Assembly (NCBI GenBank): GCA_037446035.1
Contig: JBBIJJ010000021.1
Location: 5,954 to 29,953 of the forward strand
Length of the DNA: 24,000 nucleotides
Direction of reading: 5' to 3'
Source of the DNA: Burkholderiales bacterium
GTDB lineage: Bacteria; Pseudomonadota; Gammaproteobacteria; Burkholderiales; Burkholderiaceae_F
Below are positions 11,605 to 23,265 of this stretch, piece by piece (position 1 is the first letter of the stretch; every line of letters starts with the position of its first letter). The notes beneath the pieces were generated by a model. The model ran no database searches. It worked only from the letters and a program-made list of their open reading frames with translations, and was not told the origin of the DNA. The translations under genes and the position numbers were made by a program.

Positions 11605-12171
11605 CTATTCCTTGATGGCTTCGACGGGCACGTGGATGGTCACCTCGTCGCTCACGTAGGGCGCGTGTTTGCCCATGTTGAAGTCCGAGCGCTTCACGCG
11701 CGTCACGGCATTCGCGCCGCAAGCATCCTTCTTGGCGATCGGGTGCGGCATGCAGTGAAACGAGGTGACGGTGAGCCGCACCGGCCGCGTGATGCCCTTG
11801 ATCGTGAGCTGGCCGTCGGCTTCGACCACGCGGTCACCGTCGAACTTCAGGCGATCCGCCTTGAACGCGATGGTCGGATGCTTGGCGGTGTCGAAGAAGT
11901 CTTCGGCCTGGATGTGTTCGTTGAACAGCGCGTAGCCGGTGTCGACGGACTTGGCGTCGATCGTCACCTCGATCGAACCCGTCCGCGCGGCGCGATCGAG
12001 CACGATCTTGCCGCTCGTCCTGGTAAAGCGATGCGCCTGCGTCGAGTAGCCGAAGTGGCTGTACTCGAAGCGTGGATACGTATGCGCGTTGTCGATCACA
12101 TAGGTCTCGGGCGCCGCCGCGGCGGCGGCCGGCAGCAGTGCCGCGAGGGCGTACAGCAGCGGACTTTTCAT
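11605..12171 (-). CDS. yceI: YceI-family periplasmic (polyisoprenoid-binding-like) protein
   Basis: 188-aa ORF with a signal peptide (MKSPLLYALAALLPAAAAAA). Has the YceI pattern Y.ID..H....F...H.G.S...G.F, plus DFFD..KHP...F and L.G.LTI.G.T.PV. Its ATG overlaps the upstream stop (ATGA at 12168..12171). Confidence 0.85.
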   Translation of the reverse strand: MKSPLLYALAALLPAAAAAAPETYVIDNAHTYPRFEYSHFGYSTQAHRFTRTSGKIVLDRAARTGSIEVTIDAKSVDTGYALFNEHIQAEDFFDTAKHPTIAFKADRLKFDGDRVVEADGQLTIKGITRPVRLTVTSFHCMPHPIAKKDACGANAVTRVKRSDFNMGKHAPYVSDEVTIHVPVEAIKE

Positions 12172-13316
12172 CGCGAGCTTCCTTTCCTGTTGGAAACGGC
12201 GGCCGCAGCGCCGCTGGCGGCCGCGACCAGATAAAAACGGATCTCGACTTCGTCAGCCACGGCGCTCGTGTCGGACCAGGCGCCTTCGCCGATACCGAAT
12301 TGCAGGCGCCGGATCGGAAACGCGCCGCTGAACACTGCACGCTCGCCATCGCGACGCAAGGTCACCGGTGCGCGCACCGGCTGCGTGCGGCCTTTGATCG
12401 TCAGGTCTCCGGCGACCTCGTAGCGGTCGGCGCCGAGCGCGCGCACGGCGGTGGCAACGAAGCGCGCGGTCGGATGATTCTTGGCGTCGAACCAGGGACG
12501 CGTCAGCGCGGTGTCGTTCGCCTCCGCGAGCCCGGTGTCGATGCTGGCGACGTCGATGTCCACCGTCGCGCGCGAGCGCTGCGGCTGCGCCTCGTCGAAC
12601 GCGAACTCGGCGGAGAAGCGCACAAAGCGGCCTTCGATCGGCGCACCCATCGCGCGGTAGGAGAACGTGACACGGCTGCGGTCGGCGAGCAGCCGGTCGT
12701 ATTGCGCGGCGGCCGCAGCACCCGTGGCGAGCATCGCCCCGGCGGTCAGCAACGCGCCGGCAACGACGCGCATCATCGCGCCGCGTCCGGCGCCGGGCAG
12801 CATTCGCCGCAGCACGTCATCACGGTCGACGAAGCGGTGTTTCAGCGCGGCACCGACATGCACGGCCACCAGCGTCGCCAGCGTGAGGTTCAGCCCGAGG
12901 TGCACCCAGCGCAGCACCTCGCCGAGCGCCTCGTCCCGCGGCAGCAAGTCGGGCAGCCGCAGCAAGCCCAGCCAAACGGTCGGCACGCCTTTGGCGGAAC
13001 TCATCAGCCAGCCGGAAAGGGGAACCGCGAGCATCAGCCCATACAAGGCCGCTTGCACGCCGGCGGCGGCGCGGCGCTCCCATGCAGGCAGATGCGGCGG
13101 CAGCGGTGGCGCCGGATGCGCAAGCCGCCACGCCAGGCGTGCGGCGGCGAGCATGAAAACGGTCACGCCGATCCACTTGTGGAAGGCGTACAGCTTGAGC
13201 TTTTGCGGCGTCAACGGCAGGTCCTGCATGTAAAGGCCGAGCGGAAACGCCACGAAGATCAGCAGCGCTACCGCCCAGTGCAGCGCGATCGCGGTGCGCG
13301 TGTACGTCGTCGTCAA
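12168..13316 (-). CDS. cytochrome b561 (CybB-like, 4-TM di-haem) fused in frame to a YceI-like domain
   Basis: Lies in ORF 12168..13412. The N-terminal half has conserved His-containing helices (IALHW, AFHKW, RWVH, VHVGAALKH) and LRRMLP, as in CybB. A signal-peptide-like segment MMRVVAGALLTAGAMLATGAAAAA follows, then a YceI-like domain (V.F......G.F..F, WFDAKNHPTARF, GDLTIKGRTQPV). Start proposed at TTG 13316 because AGGAG lies 6 nt upstream. An internal ATG at 12776 could instead yield a separate YceI protein. Confidence 0.75.
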   Translation of the reverse strand: MTTTYTRTAIALHWAVALLIFVAFPLGLYMQDLPLTPQKLKLYAFHKWIGVTVFMLAAARLAWRLAHPAPPLPPHLPAWERRAAAGVQAALYGLMLAVPLSGWLMSSAKGVPTVWLGLLRLPDLLPRDEALGEVLRWVHLGLNLTLATLVAVHVGAALKHRFVDRDDVLRRMLPGAGRGAMMRVVAGALLTAGAMLATGAAAAAQYDRLLADRSRVTFSYRAMGAPIEGRFVRFSAEFAFDEAQPQRSRATVDIDVASIDTGLAEANDTALTRPWFDAKNHPTARFVATAVRALGADRYEVAGDLTIKGRTQPVRAPVTLRRDGERAVFSGAFPIRRLQFGIGEGAWSDTSAVADEVEIRFYLVAAASGAAAAVSNRKGSSR

Positions 13317-17082: not shown

Positions 17083-17089
17083 TTGCGGT

Positions 17090-17188
17090 CTCCCCTTTCA
17101 AGGGGAGGTGGGGCGGGGTCGGGTGCCTGGTGTCGAAAATACATCCCCACCCCTTTGCCTGCCCTTGTGAACGGCAGCGGCAGCGGCA
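17090..17188. repeat. REPIN-like doublet ('empty' version of the repeat pair that flanks the DUF559 gene)
   Basis: The left arm is hairpin CTCCCCTT-tc-AAGGGGAG plus G-tract tail GTGGGGCGGGGTCGGGTGC. After a ~16-nt spacer, the right arm is CATCCCCACCCC (identical to the core of the arm at 20031..20070) plus a degenerate hairpin TGCCTGCCCTTGTGAACGGCAGCGGCA. Confidence 0.6.
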
Positions 17189-17221: not shown

Positions 17222-19639
17222 ATGAGCAACTTCATCGTCAGAAAAGTCGCCGTGCTCGGTGCCGGCGTAATGGGCGCGCAGATTGCGGCGCATTGCGTCA
17301 ATGCCAAGGTGCCGGTCGTGCTGTTCGACCTGCCCGCAAAAGACGGGCCGAAGAACGGCATCGTGCTGAAGGCCATCGAAAACCTGAAGAAGCTGAATCC
17401 GGCGCCGCTCGGCAACAAGGACGACGCCCAGCACATCGAGCCGGCCAACTACGAGGATCACCTCGAACTGCTGCGCGGCTGTGATGTCGTGATCGAGGCG
17501 ATCGCCGAGCGGATGGACTGGAAGCACGACCTGTACCGGAAAGTCGCGCCCTTTCTGCGCGCCGACGCGATCTTCGCGTCCAACACCTCGGGCCTGCCGA
17601 TCGAGCGGCTTGCGGAGGTCATGAACACGGAGCTGAAGCAGCGCTTCTGCGGCGTGCACTTCTTCAACCCGCCGCGCTACATGCACCTGGTCGAGCTGAT
17701 CCCCACACCCGCGACGAAGCCGCGGATCCTCGACGATCTGGAGACCTTTCTGACGAGCACGCTCGGCAAGGGGGTCGTGCGCGCCAAGGACACACCGAAC
17801 TTCATCGCCAACCGCGTCGGCATCTTCGGCATGCTGGCGACGATCGAGGAGGCGGAGAAGTACGGCATCCCGTACGACGTGGTCGACGACCTGACCGGTT
17901 CCAAGCTCGGCCGTGCCAAGAGCGCGACGTTCCGCACTGCCGACGTCGTCGGCCTGGACACGATGGCGCACGTGATCCGCACGATGCAGGAGACGCTGCC
18001 GGCAGCGGTCGATCCGTTCGCCGAGCACTTCGCGACACCGCCGGTGTTGCAGGCGCTCGTCGACAAGGGCGCACTGGGTCAGAAGGCCGGTGCCGGGTTC
18101 TATCGGAAGGACGGCAAAGTCATCAAGGTGCTGGACCCGAAGAAGCAGGACTACGTGGAGTCGACCGGCAAGGCCGACGAGCTGATCGTGCGCATCCTGA
18201 AGAAAAAGGATCCCGCCGAGCGGCTGAAGCTGCTGCGCGAGACCGATCATCCGCAGGCCAAGTTCCTGTGGGCGATCTTCCGCGACGCCTTCCATTACAT
18301 CGCCGTGCATCTGGAGTCGATCGCCGATACCGCGCGCGACGTCGACTTCGCGCTGCGCTGGGGATTCGGCTGGAGCACCGGCCCGTTCGAGACGTGGCAG
18401 GCCGCGGGATGGAAGCAGATCGCCGAGTGGGTGCAGTCCGATATCGACAAAGGCGACGCCCTCGCGAAAGCGCCGCTGCCGAAGTGGGTCTTCGAGGGAC
18501 CGGTTGCGAAAGCCGGGGGCGTGCACACGAAGGACGGCTCGTGGTCGCCGGCGAAGAAGAAGTTCGTCGGCCGCTCGAACCTGCCCGTCTACGCGCGCCA
18601 GATCTTCCGCGCGTCGCTGCTCGGCGAAGGCGCGCCGACGGGGCACAACGGCGGCACGACGATCCACGAGGACGACTCGGTGCGCATCTGGAAGCTCGAC
18701 CAGGGGCTCGGCGCCGAGGTGCTGATCCTGTCGCTGAAGACCAAGGTCCACGCGATCGGCCCCGGCGTGCTCGCCGGCATGAACAAGGCCGTCGAGCTGG
18801 CCGAGTCGCAGTACCGGGGGCTCGTGATCTGGTCGCCCGACGATCCGTTCTCGGTCGGCGCCGACCTGCAGGCGATGATGCCGGTGTTCATGGCCGGCGG
18901 CGCCAAGGCGATCGGCCCCGAGGTCGCCAAGTTCCAGCAGACGATGATGCGGCTGAAGTACTCGCAGGTGCCGGTGGTCGCCGCGGTCAGCGGCATGGCG
19001 CTCGGCGGCGGCTGCGAGACGCTGCTTCACTGCGCCAAGCGGGTGGCAAGCCTCGAAAGCTACATCGGCCTGGTCGAGGTCGGCGTCGGGCTGATCCCGG
19101 GCGGCGGCGGGCTGAAGGAAGGCGCGCTGCGCGCAGCGGCGGCCGCGCAGGCGGCGGGCATGACGGACGTATTCCCGTTCATCCGCAACTGGTTTACGAA
19201 CGCTGCAATGGCCAACGTTTCGAAGTCCGCGCTCGAGGCGCGTGCAATGGGCTATCTATTGCCGAGCGACACGATCGTCTTCAACCCGCACGAACTGCTG
19301 TGGACGGCCATCGGCGAGGCGTTCGCACTGCACGCGACCGGCTGGCGCCCGCCGTTGCTGGCGAGGGGCTTCCCGGTGGCGGGCCGGACCGGCGTGGCGA
19401 ACGTCAAGGCGCAGCTTGTCAACATGCGCGACGGCGGCTTCATCAGCGCGCACGACTTCTTCATCGCCAGCCGGATCGCCGAGGTGATGTGCGGCGGCGA
19501 CGTCGAACCCGGTTCGCTGGTCGACGAGCAGTGGCTGCTCGACCTCGAACGCAAGCACTTCGTCGAGCTGGTGGCGCATCCGAAATCGCAGGAGCGCATG
19601 ATGGGCATGATGCAGACCGGCAAGCCGGTCAGGAACTGA
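17222..19639 (+). CDS. bifunctional 3-hydroxyacyl-CoA dehydrogenase / enoyl-CoA hydratase (FadB-like, dehydrogenase domain N-terminal)
   Basis: 805-aa ORF. N-terminal NAD-binding VAVLGAGVMGAQIAAH, plus NTSGL, HFFNPPRYM, TPNFIANR and a 3HCDH C-terminal domain. The C-terminal third is crotonase-like (DPFSVGADL..., VAAVSGMALGGGCE). Confidence 0.9.
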   Translation: MSNFIVRKVAVLGAGVMGAQIAAHCVNAKVPVVLFDLPAKDGPKNGIVLKAIENLKKLNPAPLGNKDDAQHIEPANYEDHLELLRGCDVVIEAIAERMDWKHDLYRKVAPFLRADAIFASNTSGLPIERLAEVMNTELKQRFCGVHFFNPPRYMHLVELIPTPATKPRILDDLETFLTSTLGKGVVRAKDTPNFIANRVGIFGMLATIEEAEKYGIPYDVVDDLTGSKLGRAKSATFRTADVVGLDTMAHVIRTMQETLPAAVDPFAEHFATPPVLQALVDKGALGQKAGAGFYRKDGKVIKVLDPKKQDYVESTGKADELIVRILKKKDPAERLKLLRETDHPQAKFLWAIFRDAFHYIAVHLESIADTARDVDFALRWGFGWSTGPFETWQAAGWKQIAEWVQSDIDKGDALAKAPLPKWVFEGPVAKAGGVHTKDGSWSPAKKKFVGRSNLPVYARQIFRASLLGEGAPTGHNGGTTIHEDDSVRIWKLDQGLGAEVLILSLKTKVHAIGPGVLAGMNKAVELAESQYRGLVIWSPDDPFSVGADLQAMMPVFMAGGAKAIGPEVAKFQQTMMRLKYSQVPVVAAVSGMALGGGCETLLHCAKRVASLESYIGLVEVGVGLIPGGGGLKEGALRAAAAAQAAGMTDVFPFIRNWFTNAAMANVSKSALEARAMGYLLPSDTIVFNPHELLWTAIGEAFALHATGWRPPLLARGFPVAGRTGVANVKAQLVNMRDGGFISAHDFFIASRIAEVMCGGDVEPGSLVDEQWLLDLERKHFVELVAHPKSQERMMGMMQTGKPVRN

Positions 19640-19650
19640 CCGGCCGCATA

Positions 19651-19690
19651 CCCTCCCCTTCAAAGGGAGGGCCAGGGTGGGGATGGGGTC
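19651..19690 (+). repeat. left inverted-repeat arm
   Basis: CCCTCCCCTTCAAAGGGAGGGCCAGGGTGGGGATGGGGTC, i.e. a C/G hairpin plus a G-tract tail. Confidence 0.7.
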
Positions 19691-19695
19691 AAGCG

Positions 19696-20061
19696 ATGCT
19701 CGGTCAGACAGGCGCAACGGCAAGAGTCCATGCAGTCGGACTGCGCAAGCAGCCGACCGATGCCGAGCGTGTGCTTTGGCGGCATTTGCGCGGCCGGCAG
19801 TTTGGCGTGAAGTTTCGGCGCCAGCATCCTTACCTGAACTACGTGCTGGACTTCGTCTGTCTCGAACACAAGCTCGTCGTCGAAGTCGACGGTTCCCAGC
19901 ACGCTGGGTCGCACCGAGACGCGGAACGAGACCGGAAACTCGTCGAAGGCGGTTTTCGGGTGCTGCGGTTCTGGGACAACGACGTGTTGGATGAAACGGG
20001 TGCAGTGCTCGACGCGATTCACCAAGCGCTGAACCCATCCCCACCCCAACCCTCCCCTTGA
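19696..20061 (+). CDS. DUF559 / Vsr-like (restriction-endonuclease-fold) endonuclease domain protein
   Basis: 121 aa, taken from the last part of track ORF 18268..20061, starting at ATG 19696. LRKQPTDAERVLWRHLRGRQFGVKFRRQHPYLNYVLDFVCLEHKLVVEVDGSQH...GFRVLRFWDNDVL is the canonical DUF559 pattern with the acidic catalytic residues intact. Confidence 0.85.
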   Translation: MLGQTGATARVHAVGLRKQPTDAERVLWRHLRGRQFGVKFRRQHPYLNYVLDFVCLEHKLVVEVDGSQHAGSHRDAERDRKLVEGGFRVLRFWDNDVLDETGAVLDAIHQALNPSPPQPSP

Positions 20062-20070
20062 AGGGGAGGG
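20031..20070 (-). repeat. right inverted-repeat arm
   Basis: The reverse complement reads CCCTCCCCTTCAAGGGGAGGGTTGGGGTGGGGATGGGTTC, with a perfect 10-bp hairpin stem. It encodes the last codons and the stop of the DUF559 ORF. Confidence 0.7.
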
Positions 20071-20088
20071 GGTCGCAAGGAGAAATCG

Positions 20089-21288
20089 ATGACCCGACAA
20101 GTGCAGGACGCCTACATCGTCGCCGCGACGCGCACGCCGATCGGCAAGGCGCCGAAGGGAAGCTTCAAGAACGTGCGGCCCGACGACCTGCTGGTCGCGG
20201 CGATCCAGTCGGCACTCAGGCAGGTGCCGGACCTCGACCCGAAGGCGATCGAGGACGCGATCATCGGCTGCGCGATGCCGGAAGCCGAGCAGGGGCTGAA
20301 CGTCGCGCGCGTGGCGGTGCTGCTCGCCGGGCTGCCGGCGAGCGTCGGCGGCATGACGATCAACCGCTTCTGTTCGTCCGGGCTGAACGCGGTGGCGATC
20401 GCCGCCGACCGCATCCGCGTCGGCGAGGCCGACGTGATGATCGCCGGCGGCACCGAGTCGATGAGCATGGTGCCGATGACCGGCAACAAGCCGTCGTTCA
20501 ACACGCGCATCTTCGAGCGCGACGAGAACGTCGGCATCGCCTACGGCATGGGCATGACCGCCGAGCGCGTCGCCGCGCAGTGGAAGGTCACGCGCGAGAT
20601 GCAGGACGAATTCGCCTACCAGTCGCACATGAAGGCGATCGCCGCGCAGAAATCGGGCGAGTTCGCCGACGAGATCACGCCGATCGAAGTCGTCGAGAAG
20701 TTTCCGAACCTCGGCAGCCGCGAAGTCGAAGTCAAGACGCGCAGGGTCGCGCTCGACGAAGGCCCGCGCGCCGACACGAACATGGAGGCGCTGGCGAAGC
20801 TCAAACCCGTGTTCGCCGCGCGCGGCAGCGTCACCGCCGGCAACAGCTCGCAGACCTCCGACGGCGCCGGCTGCCTGATCCTCGCGAGCGAGAAGGCAGT
20901 CAAACAGTTCAACCTGACGCCGCTGGCGCGCTTCGTCTCGTTCGCGATCCGCGGCGTGCCGCCCGAGATCATGGGCATCGGTCCGAAGGAGGCGATCCCG
21001 GTCGCGCTGAAGCTCGCCGGGCTGACGGCCGAGGACATCGGCTGGATCGAGCTGAACGAAGCGTTCGCGGCGCAGGCGCTCGCGGTGATCAACGACCTCG
21101 GACTGGACCGCACGAAGGTCAACCCGATCGGCGGTGCGATCGCGTTGGGCCACCCGCTCGGCGCCACCGGCGCGATCCGCTCGGCCACCGTCGTGCACGC
21201 GCTGCGCCGCAAGCAACTGAAGTACGGCATGGTGACGATGTGCGTCGGCACCGGCATGGGGGCGGCCGGGATCTTCGAGCGGGTGTGA
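20089..21288 (+). CDS. acetyl-CoA C-acyltransferase (3-ketoacyl-CoA thiolase)
   Basis: 399-aa ORF with AAGGAG SD. Has the active-site Cys region INRFCSSGL, plus NEAFAAQ, GGAIALGHPLGATG and CVGTGMG. Confidence 0.92.
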   Translation: MTRQVQDAYIVAATRTPIGKAPKGSFKNVRPDDLLVAAIQSALRQVPDLDPKAIEDAIIGCAMPEAEQGLNVARVAVLLAGLPASVGGMTINRFCSSGLNAVAIAADRIRVGEADVMIAGGTESMSMVPMTGNKPSFNTRIFERDENVGIAYGMGMTAERVAAQWKVTREMQDEFAYQSHMKAIAAQKSGEFADEITPIEVVEKFPNLGSREVEVKTRRVALDEGPRADTNMEALAKLKPVFAARGSVTAGNSSQTSDGAGCLILASEKAVKQFNLTPLARFVSFAIRGVPPEIMGIGPKEAIPVALKLAGLTAEDIGWIELNEAFAAQALAVINDLGLDRTKVNPIGGAIALGHPLGATGAIRSATVVHALRRKQLKYGMVTMCVGTGMGAAGIFERV

Positions 21289-21342
21289 TAGGCGCGCACG
21301 GGGCTCACCAAGTCGGCGGGTGCGATTGCCATCGGGGCGACC

Positions 21343-21813
21343 ATGACCGTCGCGCAGCGTTTCTTCGACGCCTTCATGCTCGGCGACCACCACACGATGG
21401 GCCAGCTTTACGCGTCCGATGCGACGTTCAGCGATCCGATCTTCCCGCTGCTGTCGGCCGACGAGGTGCGGCTGATGTGGCGCATGCTGCTGACGCGCGC
21501 GCGCGGCTTCAGCGTGTCGGCCAACGTCGAGGAGGGACCGCACGGCGCGCGCGCGGTCTGGATCGCGCGCTACACGTACGGTACGCGGCCGGTACGCAAC
21601 CGTGTCTACACCGAGATGGTGATCGCCGCTGGCAAGATCGTGCGCCAGGTCGACCGCTTCAGCTTCTGGCGCTGGTCGCGGCAGGCGCTCGGCTGGAAGG
21701 GATGGCTGCTGGGCTGGACGCCGTGGCTGCGCAACCGCGTGCGCGCGCAGGCGGCGGAGGCGCTGCGGCGGTTCGCGCAGCAGGAACGACAGGGCAGCAA
21801 GGAGACGCGATGA
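21343..21813 (+). CDS. NTF2/SnoaL-like (ketosteroid-isomerase-fold) protein with a Trp-rich C-terminal tail
   Basis: 156-aa ORF. The N-terminal ~110 aa have an NTF2-like pattern (FFDAF..GD...M..LYA.DATFSDP). The tail FSFWRWSRQALGWKGWLLGWTPWLRNRV contains six Trp. The stop overlaps the next ATG (ATGA at 21810..21813). Confidence 0.65.
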   Translation: MTVAQRFFDAFMLGDHHTMGQLYASDATFSDPIFPLLSADEVRLMWRMLLTRARGFSVSANVEEGPHGARAVWIARYTYGTRPVRNRVYTEMVIAAGKIVRQVDRFSFWRWSRQALGWKGWLLGWTPWLRNRVRAQAAEALRRFAQQERQGSKETR

Positions 21814-22574
21814 GCATCAGGACTGAAACGGCGGACGGCGTGGCGCGCATCGAGATCGCGCGGCCGGAGAAGAAGAACGCGATCACGATGGCGATGTACC
21901 AGCAGATGGCCGACGCGATCGCCGCCGCGCACGACGACGGCCGCGTGCGGGCGATCCTGATTCACGGCCAGCCCGACATCTTTACCGCCGGCAACGATCT
22001 CGAGGACTTCATGAAGCATCCGGCGCAAAGCATGGACGCGCCGGTATTCAAGTTCATGCAGGCGCTCGGCTATGCCGAGAAGCCCGTGGTCGCGGCGGTC
22101 AACGGTGCGGCGGTCGGCATCGGCACGACGATGCTGCTGCATTGCGACCTCGCGTACTGCGCCGACAACGCGATGTTCTCGATGCCGTTCGTCTCGCTTG
22201 GCCTGTGTGCGGAGTTCGCCTCCAGCCTGCTCGTGCCGCTGGCGGCCGGCTACCACAAGGCCGCGGAAAAACTGCTGCTCGGCGATCCGCTGAGCGCCGA
22301 AGAGGCGCTCGAGATGAAGATCGTGAACCGCATCCTGCCGCCCGACGAGGTGCTCGCCTACGCACAGAAGCAGGCCGCGCGTTTCAATGCGCTGCCGCCG
22401 GCATCCGTGCGCGAAACCAAGCGTCTGATGAAAGCCGGCTTCAAGAGCATCGTCGAGAAGATCATCCTGGACGAGGCGCAGACCTTCGGCCGCATGCTCA
22501 AGAGCCCGGAAGCGAAGGAAGCCTTCGCCGCGTTCTTCGAGCGGCGCATGCCGGACTTTTCGAAGTTCAGCTGA
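21810..22574 (+). CDS. enoyl-CoA hydratase/isomerase (crotonase family)
   Basis: Last 254 aa of track ORF 20058..22574, starting at ATG 21810. Has ARIEIARPEKKNAIT, FTAGNDL and KPVVAAVNGAAVGIGTTMLLHCDL. Confidence 0.9.
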   Translation: MSIRTETADGVARIEIARPEKKNAITMAMYQQMADAIAAAHDDGRVRAILIHGQPDIFTAGNDLEDFMKHPAQSMDAPVFKFMQALGYAEKPVVAAVNGAAVGIGTTMLLHCDLAYCADNAMFSMPFVSLGLCAEFASSLLVPLAAGYHKAAEKLLLGDPLSAEEALEMKIVNRILPPDEVLAYAQKQAARFNALPPASVRETKRLMKAGFKSIVEKIILDEAQTFGRMLKSPEAKEAFAAFFERRMPDFSKFS

Positions 22575-22577
22575 TGC

Positions 22578-22613
22578 TCTCCGTCCCTCGGCCAGGGGCA
22601 GGGGTGAAGGGTC
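22578..22613 (+). repeat. degenerate solo member of the G-tract repeat family
   Basis: CCCTCGG followed by CCAGGGGCAGGGGTGAAGGGTC, which resembles the tail CCAGGGTGGGGATGGGGTC of 19672..19690. The hairpin part is missing. Confidence 0.3.
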
Positions 22614-22652
22614 TGGGCCGCGCGCAGCCCCTGGAGATCGAGGCAGCCGGCG

Positions 22653-23086: not shown

Positions 23087-23265
23087 CCTCTTGCAAAGAC
23101 CGCCGCAGAATCCGTGCCCCTGACCAGCGACGGCGCCGAAGAAGGCGCAGCACACCGTCCTCTTGCAAAGCGGGGCAGGGGGGATTTCAGCGGCGCTTTT
23201 TGCTGCGACGATCGGAAAATCGCCCTCGGTCCCCCTTTACGAAAGGGGGCGGGAGACGGGTGCAC
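23087..23265 (+). repeat. repeat-rich intergenic region: 12-nt direct repeat plus a hairpin/G-tract family member
   Basis: CCTCTTGCAAAG occurs at 23087..23098 and 23159..23170. A perfect 8-bp hairpin CCCCCTTT-acg-AAAGGGGG lies at 23231..23249, preceded by CCCTCGG and followed by CGGGAGACGGGTGCAC (compare GTCGGGTGCC at 17118..17127). Confidence 0.5.

Follow-up and report, generated by a model that had tools for sequence, protein, structure and literature searches.

The results concern a 420-bp block within 24,000 nucleotides of the genome of a Burkholderiales bacterium (contig JBBIJJ010000021.1), the whole stretch of DNA analyzed being called the window. The block lies between a FadB-like gene and a thiolase gene and consists of an open reading frame (ORF) encoding a protein of the DUF559 family together with two arms in inverted orientation that, by geometry, are BoxC/PIT/TM intrastrand-triplex repeats. 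Arms and gene remain associated from site to site and from phylum to phylum, and it is very probable that DUF559 genes and BoxC/TM motifs form a specific and evolutionarily maintained pair. There is equally little doubt that this cassette was inserted secondarily at the FadB-thiolase junction. The full reading proposed here, including the steps of a mechanism, is that of a widespread promoter-less DUF559/BoxC-TM cassette in which the nuclease is the cognate enzyme of the repeats, for which the probability is estimated at about 0.5. Both components were already known, the repeat as BoxC/PIT/TM and the protein family as DUF559. No link of DUF559, ycjD, Vsr or very short patch repair to REP, to miniature inverted-repeat transposable elements (MITE), to BoxC or to triplex repeats was found in the literature, subscription-only publications lying outside the search. 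The association of DUF559 with the repeats, the architecture of the cassette and the link between ycjD and TM_ECO are new to the same extent, being in no searchable paper.

A preliminary description of this DNA had placed an intact ORF for a 121-residue DUF559 protein between the FadB stop codon and the thiolase ribosome-binding site (RBS), and all of its coordinates were found to be correct (Table 1). The imperfect inverted repeats of approximately 40 nt that it reported are 41 nt long and 88% complementary, ranking first among the 349 inverted repeats of the window, and the hairpin pattern occurs twice in the window with 0.00 occurrences expected from shuffled sequences. The cassette lies in the operon in sense orientation, with the thiolase RBS still intact. 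The left arm ends 4 nt 5' of the DUF559 ATG, and its G-run is the sole Shine-Dalgarno (SD)-like sequence available to the ORF. The right arm codes for the final nine codons, NPSPPQPSP, and for the stop, as had been described; the TGA at 20059-20061 spans the apex of the hairpin formed by 20050-20059 and 20061-20070. An impression that the ORF favors A/T-ending codons agrees with a G+C content at third codon positions (GC3) of 0.68, versus 0.90-0.95 for the acyl-CoA dehydrogenase (ACAD), FadB, thiolase and SnoaL genes.

Table 1. Positions in the window of the cassette, its host genes and a related doublet.
Feature	Position	Strand	Remarks
Upstream host gene, FadB-like 3-hydroxyacyl-CoA dehydrogenase/enoyl-CoA hydratase	17222..19639	+	stop at 19637-19639
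Left arm, BoxC/PIT/TM triplex motif by geometry, hairpin-then-G-strand orientation	19651..19691	+	
Intact DUF559 ORF, 121 aa, predicted Vsr-like/EDxHD-type PD-(D/E)XK nuclease fold	19696..20061	+	
Right arm, minus-strand triplex motif of the left-arm kind	20030..20070	-	generic finder: 20037-20071
Thiolase ribosome-binding site AAGGAG	20077..20082	+	preserved, 6 nt past right arm
Downstream host gene, thiolase	20089..21288	+	ATG at 20089
Degenerate gene-less doublet, ACAD-FadB spacer	17089..17156		motif 17089-17119, ~24 nt, C-tract CATCCCCACCCC

In each arm a C-rich strand and its G-rich complement are joined by a 1-nt loop, and a 3-nt loop leads on to a mirror G-strand. In the left arm the hairpin 19651-19660/19662-19671 is followed by the loop CCA and by the G-strand GGGTGGGGAT starting at 19675, which mirrors the purine arm GGGAGGGGAA; the loop of the right arm is TTG. 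This succession of pyrimidine arm, loop, purine arm, loop and mirror G-strand is that of an intrastrand purine-motif triplex. The earlier account of each arm as a hairpin with a G-tract was right in that both are present and incomplete in that the triplex geometry is there in full. A generic finder was written for this geometry, with A replaceable by T in the third strand, and it called 19651-19684 on the plus strand and 20037-20071 on the minus strand, each with one hairpin mismatch and one third-strand mismatch. The third copy called in the window belongs to the degenerate doublet of the ACAD-FadB spacer, in which the hairpin-plus-G-strand motif is intact and only the C-tract is left of the right arm. 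A call at 23217-23264, made on both strands and ambiguous, corresponds to a hairpin/G-tract CCCCCTTTACGAAAGGGGGCGGGAGACGGGTG at a gene end; a further hairpin/G-tract, GGCCAGGGGCAGGGGTGAAGGG at 22575-22615, follows directly on a stop codon at 22574 and was not called by the finder. Both are possibly degenerate members of the triplex-motif family.

BoxC and PIT repeats reportedly go back to work by Bachellier and, in 2000, by Hoyne and Maher. Holder et al. (2015; PMC4666352) catalogued 23 copies of TM_ECO from E. coli K-12, among them CCCTCGCCCCTCTGGGGAGAGGGTTAGGGTGAGGGG, and reported the motif from more than 260 genomes; that it forms a triplex in vitro was established with E. coli oligonucleotides only, by NMR and CD. 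Close inverted pairs are found at five E. coli sites, TM loci are rearrangement hotspots, and no associated mobility function was ever found by those authors (PMC4666352). The window arms have the same architecture of pyrimidine arm, loop, purine arm, short loop and mirroring G-strand and are likewise intergenic, multi-copy and arranged as a close inverted pair, as BoxC/PIT/TM repeats often are. Judged by geometry, they are BoxC/PIT/TM triplex motifs, the triplex state itself being known from E. coli oligonucleotides. The loops differ, since E. coli pairs combine CCG (type B) with TTA (type A) whereas in the window the left arm has CCA and the right arm TTG; a conserved A/B loop polarity of DUF559 cassettes was considered and is not general. 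The window and the DUF559 family at large are set apart from the catalogued repeats in that the inverted pair encloses a nuclease gene.

The arms had been called REPIN-like. The analogy is fair, yet they belong to the BoxC/TM family instead of REP, and no RAYT is involved. The REP/REPIN-RAYT systems, reportedly worked out by Nunvar in 2010 and by Bertels and Rainey in 2011, are likewise a family of short structured intergenic repeats with inverted doublets. They also share with the cassette a nuclease gene that usually occurs once per genome between inverted repeat copies, the long vertical residence of that gene and the lack of a target-site duplication. The RAYT enzyme, however, is an HUH Y1 transposase, whereas the window enzyme has the predicted PD-(D/E)XK Vsr/EDxHD fold, and the window arms are triplex motifs with the right repeat inside the ORF. 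An identity with REP/REPIN was rejected, the arms having no GTAG/CGTC tag and the enclosed gene being DUF559 with no RAYT, which leaves the analogy only.

The protein scored 121.7 bits with the Pfam model PF04480 (DUF559; cut-off 20.6 bits), at E=1.6e-35 and over positions 5-108 of the 109 in the profile, and it matched the sequence of PDB 3HRL (N. gonorrhoeae NGO0050) with E=2e-21. The model for E. coli YcjD, PRK09767, gave 87 bits, under its equivalog cut-off of 218 bits. When an AlphaFold model of the protein (pLDDT 87) was compared by Foldseek, the order of matches was 3HRL (TM-score 0.88), the catalytic domain of the homing endonuclease I-Bth0305I (PDB 3R3P; PMC3239194; probability 1.00, TM-score 0.72-0.74), RAP-domain proteins and then Vsr (1CW0). 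Residues D52, E63, D65, Q68, H69 and D75 are invariant in 30 homologues, and the acidic and histidine residues among them (D52, E63, D65, H69 and D75 in window numbering) are conserved in I-Bth0305I. On these models the protein is predicted to be a nuclease of the Vsr-like/EDxHD fold, closest to 3HRL and then to I-Bth0305I. The RAP-domain (FASTK-like) proteins that outrank Vsr belong to apicomplexan and ciliate mitoribosomes, a reminder that the same fold acts on RNA too. A likeness to homing endonucleases extends to selfish-looking genetics, patchy presence and decay after fixation. The window protein differs from I-Bth0305I in being a single domain of 121 residues without the N-terminal DNA-binding region, and in being encoded between inverted repeats in an intergenic position, not within an intron or intein. 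YcjD and NGO0050, both uncharacterized, are clear homologues, although the ycjD and Neisseria loci have lost the clean two-arm architecture of the window.

Vsr and Caulobacter VsrA belong to the same superfamily, and homologues of the window protein carry the JGI label 'very-short-patch-repair endonuclease'. The window protein is nevertheless structurally nearer to 3HRL and I-Bth0305I than to Vsr, and assignment as a Vsr mismatch endonuclease was rejected, with 21.8 bits for TIGR00632 against a cut-off of 97.85 and no cytosine-5 methyltransferase adjoining. The immediate neighbors of the gene are FadB and thiolase, and no cytosine methyltransferase gene adjoins it, an unlinked copy being possible. 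Among the PADLOC defense models only a marginal match to DpdF was obtained (E=5.6e-4), which was disregarded. In the literature that could be searched, in-vivo data exist for one DUF559 protein only, VsrA. It is SOS-induced and DNA-damaging in vivo, and it triggers a DNA-damage (SOS) response in cells without ScmA cytosine methylation (PMC12907096). The preliminary suggestion that DUF559 proteins mobilize repeats rather than act as repair enzymes is therefore too strong, since VsrA behaves as a methylation-linked, SOS-induced nuclease.

The coupling of gene and arms is recorded in the C-termini of DUF559 proteins. In the nearest 120 homologues, which are 54-90% identical and come from Herbaspirillum, Thauera, Collimonas, Noviherbaspirillum, Nitrogeniibacter and elsewhere, the exact ...PSP[PS]xPSP terminus is present in 71, many of the remainder are frameshift or read-through versions of arm DNA such as PSPPPPLPLKGRG, and only a handful of the 120 stop before the arm. 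Proline-rich tails are also found in 110 of the 143 usable representatives of clusters formed at 50% identity, mostly of the PxPxxGEG/GRG type, which are translated C-strand-plus-hairpin arms. The family comprised more than 22,000 such clusters in this search. For an examination of the DNA, 80 metagenome loci were picked by the core-domain peptide patterns [IV]E[VI]DG[SG]QH.. and FRRQHP[FY]..Y; since the patterns come from the catalytic core only, the choice of loci is independent of the tail. The region upstream of each gene was locally aligned to the reverse complement of the downstream region. Inverted-repeat scores of at least 40 were obtained in 37 of 75 loci and of at least 30 in 53, while distant control windows of the same loci reached a maximum of 22. 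The right arm of the same locus was the best partner of the left arm in 16 of the 75 loci, with approximately one expected, and arm sequences vary between loci and co-vary inside a locus. The generic finder placed a plus-strand motif just upstream of the gene in 55 of 73 metagenome loci and a minus-strand motif at the stop in 52 of 79. Within 150 nt of DUF559 gene ends the density of motifs was 57.8 per 10 kb, compared with 1.56 per 10 kb in the rest of the DUF559 loci (37-fold less) and 0.43 in FadB loci. Of 28 motifs located 250 nt or more from the gene, 15 had their closest likeness in the arms of the same locus. These results agree with the earlier expectation that other DUF559 copies would bear arms of the same kind, and the arms are a genuine repeat family, members of which also occur as gene-less doublets. 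A stricter claim that arms occur only at the gene had been suggested by an exact-arm search of 80 FadB loci, which pointed to near-exclusivity to DUF559 genes; it was dropped because the generic finder met diverged members elsewhere, for example in the Cupriavidus doublets described below.

Motifs were found beside DUF559 genes in S. meliloti, Azospirillum, N. gonorrhoeae, Deinococcus and Picosynechococcus, so that the pairing spans Alpha-, Beta- and Gammaproteobacteria, Deinococcus and cyanobacteria. In Picosynechococcus the motif is of the cyanobacterial PIT type with a 5-bp stem, and the stop codon lies within the C-tract; the N. gonorrhoeae gene (NGO0050) has a degenerate TM motif ~60 nt upstream. 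In E. coli the C-terminus of YcjD (...NRRSPSP and stop) lies in a degenerate arm, followed by a partial 3' duplication and then by TM_ECO #9 (1,351,239-1,351,204), ~170 nt downstream of ycjD. The duplication repeats the last ~45 nt of the gene (GAGACGGTGCTGGAGAATATTC..CTGAACCG; locus L167, E. coli K-12 NC_000913.3 1351200-1351830). In 5,426 complete E. coli genomes the TM_ECO motif family occupies a median of 19 places per genome, and ycjD is present in 3378 (62%); the fabI-sapF interval of E. coli genomes without ycjD holds the eefRABCD efflux operon (PMC12817139).

The abundance of motifs raises the alternative that triplex doublets propagate themselves, by replication slippage, recombination or another enzyme, and that DUF559 is cargo trapped once. 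Such an origin would be in keeping with motifs that far outnumber DUF559 genes (23 in E. coli K-12 versus one ycjD) and persist in genomes without ycjD, with gene-less doublets being common, and with a fold for which no transposase chemistry is known. However, the association is cross-phylum despite strong divergence of the arms, down to the 5-bp-stem cyanobacterial type, and since it survives that divergence a single ancient capture is unlikely unless the pairing was selected. In addition, the ~0.86 Mb of loci examined contained no cargo between arms other than DUF559, and the protein is under purifying selection and has the fold of a homing endonuclease. Capture as a mere passenger is accordingly regarded as improbable.

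In order to determine the history of the FadB-thiolase insertion, one genome per species was scanned with the FadB protein as query, which yielded 80 loci from Burkholderiaceae and related Burkholderiales, in 79 of which the thiolase start 3' of FadB could be located. The range of these loci assigns the window to a lineage of uncultured Burkholderiaceae. No DUF559 gene is present at the junction in 78 of these 79 species. Only 13-304 nt separate FadB from thiolase at 70 junctions, which include those of the closest relatives (L003-L012; FadB identity ~71-91% over the whole protein). Eight junctions from Oxalobacteraceae, with spacers of 530-680 nt, contain an ORF that was considered as a diverged DUF559 and rejected, being an unrelated hotdog-fold ORF. 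This extra ORF of ~165 residues, hotdog-fold/thioesterase-like by eye, was seen in L015, L028, L039, L048, L051, L055, L070 and L071 (Massilia, Duganella, Rugamonas and Janthinobacterium). The sole DUF559 carrier among the 79 is Herbaspirillum frisingense (L023), the protein of which is 59% identical to that of the window; the gene has an in-frame TAG and near-identical arms. The cassette is found at FadB-thiolase in metagenomic relatives, with 88% protein identity in L001/L002 and ~90% in L173, and the best match in the protein collection is 90% identical. Empty junctions, for which the preliminary description had proposed a search, are thus the rule.

The direction of the change is evident from locus L087, in which the FadB C-terminus is 87% and the DUF559 protein 67% identical to the window. 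Upstream of the cassette L087 has the entire empty-site spacer including the spacer's own hairpin, and keeps the old RBS, ATG and thiolase codons up to ..GACGCCTACATC (..TACATC), whereas 3' of the cassette there are a fresh RBS and a new thiolase 5' end. Since the complete old spacer is retained beside the cassette, the cassette was inserted secondarily, and together with the empty junctions this bears out the proposal of an insertion that left the operon unbroken. A comparable thiolase 5' relic is present in Herbaspirillum sp. WKF16 (L086). The relics, comprising RBS, ATG and first codons, occupy 3881-3950 of L086 and 255-402 of L087, in both cases upstream of the cassette, and end with ..CTGCAAGA and ..CCTACATC, respectively, points that are 13 nt apart in thiolase coordinates. 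Their closeness could reflect a preferred break site near the thiolase 5' position ..CAAGACGCCTACATC.., or coincidence. Empty sites therefore exist in related genomes, DUF559 copies elsewhere are flanked by arms, and the similarity of the arms is above the random level. The preliminary interpretation stands with respect to insertion, to arms at other DUF559 genes and to a real repeat family, but not with respect to the REPIN label. As to the age of the insertion, the comparison of the window with L001 gave a dS of 0.35 for DUF559 and 0.34-0.49 for neighboring genes, with a dN/dS of 0.17 for DUF559. Because the dS equals that of the neighbors and the dN/dS is low, the window copy has occupied its site, under selection, ever since the lineages of the window and L001 separated; on these rates the window cassette is not a recent landing.

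The relic end points also bear on the idea that the gene is a free-standing homing endonuclease for the FadB-thiolase junction, one that cuts the cassette-free thiolase 5' end and is copied in by repair, the arms being incidental. The fold match to I-Bth0305I, relic ends 13 nt or less apart, and the presence at the junction of DUF559 genes from at least three lineages (the window clade plus L087 and L179, the Herbaspirillum group, and L129, the cassette of which has a different arm type) are all consistent with it. Against these stand the presence of the same family with arms at thiS-thiG, nif, PALP-recQ, fabI-sapF and many other contexts, the fact that just two relic cases are known, and the far better conservation of the arms than of the flanks, from which it follows that the arms are not incidental. 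Homing to this one junction is the least probable of the explanations considered.

Cassettes lie between co-directional operon genes in nif (Thauera), PALP-recQ (Nitrogeniibacter), thiS-thiG (L181) and FadB-thiolase; where the neighbors could be called, both were co-oriented with DUF559 in 27 loci and both opposed in 7. The Herbaspirillum copies at FadB-thiolase are 77-79% identical to the thiS-thiG copy and 61-65% to the window copy, and being nearer to the former they indicate that the gene changed site within one lineage. Neither a plasmid nor a phage was identified as the vehicle, matches being limited to 29 plasmid records, most of which are chromids or chromosomes labelled wrongly, and a single phage record. 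An insertion sequence or MITE was also rejected: terminal inverted repeats are present in the form of the 41-nt arms, but there is neither a transposase domain nor a target-site duplication. In L162 an exact 143-nt direct repeat of a unit composed of C-strand-hairpin, spacer and hairpin-G-strand flanks the DUF559 ORF (2265-2968). Direct repeats of this unit around the ORF were found also in L133, L116 and L089, and in L133 as in L105 a stretch of ~2 kb holds two copies of DUF559. Such repeats and paired copies suggest tandem duplication or single-crossover integration. The flanking direct repeats, taken with the L086 and L087 relics, favor recombinational (single-crossover or tandem) events over cut-and-paste transposition.

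The copies can be arranged in a series of decay that starts from full elements such as that of the window. Pseudogenes were found in L023 (the in-frame stop), P0003 (H69R) and P0004 (several substitutions at invariant residues), and L027 has a solo arm at FadB-thiolase with a possible remnant of the DUF559 3' end. The ACAD-FadB spacer holds an intact gene-less doublet in L076 and in four species of Cupriavidus; the inter-arm spacers differ between species while the arms stay recognizably similar. A solo hairpin in L060 has the same outer flanks as the Cupriavidus doublets, and another is found in L003 at FadB-thiolase. The gene-less doublets and solo hairpins look like decay products. Because the hairpin is palindromic, the two hairpins of an element are also direct repeats of 21-22 nt, and these direct repeats offer a simple route to collapse by recombination or slippage.

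The long residence of the window copy agrees with another explanation, in which DUF559 is a resident host repair or genome-surveillance nuclease (Vsr-like, cf. VsrA) that is inherited vertically, often lost and mobilizes nothing, the motifs being merely regulatory or mRNA-stabilizing. The dN/dS of the gene and a dS equal to that of its neighbors fit such a role, as do the identical site in the window, L001/L002 and L173, the fixed position of ycjD in E. coli, and the divergence of DUF559 among FadB-thiolase copies, which scales roughly with that of thiolase. VsrA, SOS-induced and functionally tied to a cytosine methyltransferase (PMC12907096), provides a precedent, and arm-to-arm pairing would be a plausible control of translation. 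On the other hand, a resident gene is difficult to reconcile with the insertion beside an intact ancestral spacer in L087, with 78 of 79 readable junctions being without DUF559, or with a closely related copy in a different operon (thiS-thiG). The arms are the same as those of gene-less doublets in other spacers, the GC3 is far under that of the host genes, pseudogenized copies exist, and no methyltransferase gene adjoins the window copy. A resident host nuclease is therefore judged rather unlikely, although it is the strongest competitor to a mobile cassette.

Other repeats were observed in the FadB-thiolase spacers. In L043, L062, L075 and L078 (Paraburkholderia/Burkholderia) there are one to five tandem palindromic repeats (GCATGGGAYNGGAGTAAGCGCTAAAGCGC..CTCCNRTCGAC) of a different family, which make the spacer a recurrent landing site for unrelated repeats. 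The spacer of L009 contains a tandem repeat of CACGGAT (x3), that of L030 AGCCAAATAAA(A/G)C x4 and that of L066 TTAATTGAYGCTNC x3. Downstream, L001 has a gene for a 301-residue alpha/beta-hydrolase (11652-12557) between thiolase and the SnoaL-like gene, whereas this interval in the window (21288-21343) is a 54-nt spacer only. Elsewhere in the window, between 1600 and 4700, there are two diverged direct repeats whose copies lie ~1.5 kb apart, one of 263 nt with 72% identity (1793-2055/3344-3606) and one of 179 nt with 89% identity (3012-3190/4521-4699); they look like tandem paralogous genes.

No promoter of its own, intrinsic terminator or Rfam family was found in or around the 420-bp block, and since there is no promoter-like site between FadB and DUF559, read-through from FadB is the likely source of transcription. 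The minimum-free-energy RNA fold of 19640-20088 contains a stem of ~45 bp formed by arm with arm (z=-6.1) that encloses the whole DUF559 ORF including the G-run and ATG, and the gene-less doublet of L076 folded as DNA gave z=-8.0; ViennaRNA was used, triplexes being outside its model. Arm-to-arm pairing as predicted probably limits translation of the nuclease. In the mechanism proposed, the ORF would be transcribed by read-through of the operon, and in a single strand, whether mRNA or single-stranded DNA, the arms would pair into the ~45-bp stem, burying the SD sequence and start codon so that a potentially toxic nuclease would be kept at a low level. The nuclease would serve as cognate enzyme of the BoxC/PIT/TM repeats as RAYT does for REP/REPIN, recognizing the structured arms as hairpin, triplex or cruciform of the doublet and nicking or cutting there or nearby. 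Through break repair or recombination, with homology supplied by the ~40-nt arms and at times by adjoining host sequence, the gene-bearing unit would be copied into doublets without a gene or into orthologous sites, and recombination between the two palindromic hairpins would reduce the full element to a doublet and then to a solo hairpin. That the nuclease acts on and propagates the repeats is given somewhat less than an even chance or, at best, an even one. The broader proposal that DUF559 proteins, including E. coli YcjD, are the missing cognate nucleases of BoxC/PIT/TM repeats is given somewhat less than an even chance.

Several results weigh against the cassette with a cognate nuclease. 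An action of DUF559 on the repeats is proposed from architecture and comparison, not from biochemistry or genetics. The window protein, unlike I-Bth0305I, is without a separate DNA-binding domain, and to our knowledge a PD-(D/E)XK nuclease alone is incapable of strand transfer. No target-site duplication was detected in 49 loci, the longest word shared by the flanks averaging 3.45 against a null value of 3.36. No near-identical copies were found at different sites, so that all evidence of movement is old, at the 77-79% protein identity given above. The co-divergence of the window copy with its neighbors and its purifying selection fit a long-resident gene that is possibly useful to the host, and the repeated occupancy of FadB-thiolase in the window clade, L087, L179, Herbaspirillum and L129 could be partly vertical with many losses. 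Finally, about one-quarter of the loci are without one or both arms, and triplex motifs are still present in those E. coli genomes, 38% of the total, that have no ycjD.

The pairing is comparable to REP/RAYT or to free-standing homing endonuclease genes in that a repeat family has a resident nuclease. BoxC/PIT/TM repeats have been catalogued since the 1990s and form very stable triplexes in vitro, without an assigned origin, partner gene or function, and DUF559 is a large family for which functional data are nearly absent. A link between them supplies a testable hypothesis for both in a tractable organism, E. coli, with ycjD and 23 TM_ECO copies. It also brings a nuclease outside the HUH class into the small group of enzymes associated with repeats, accounts for thousands of odd proline-rich C-termini ('PSPxxPSP/PLPxxGEG') and for mis-extended ORFs in annotations, and provides a model for a nuclease gene living within essential operons without breaking them. 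If the reading proposed is true, the cassette would represent a second, independently evolved system of repeat plus resident nuclease beside REP/RAYT, with an enzyme of the EDxHD/Vsr fold that recognizes non-B (hairpin or triplex) DNA, and the activity of the nuclease would generate and maintain the repeat populations and cause the instability reported at TM loci.

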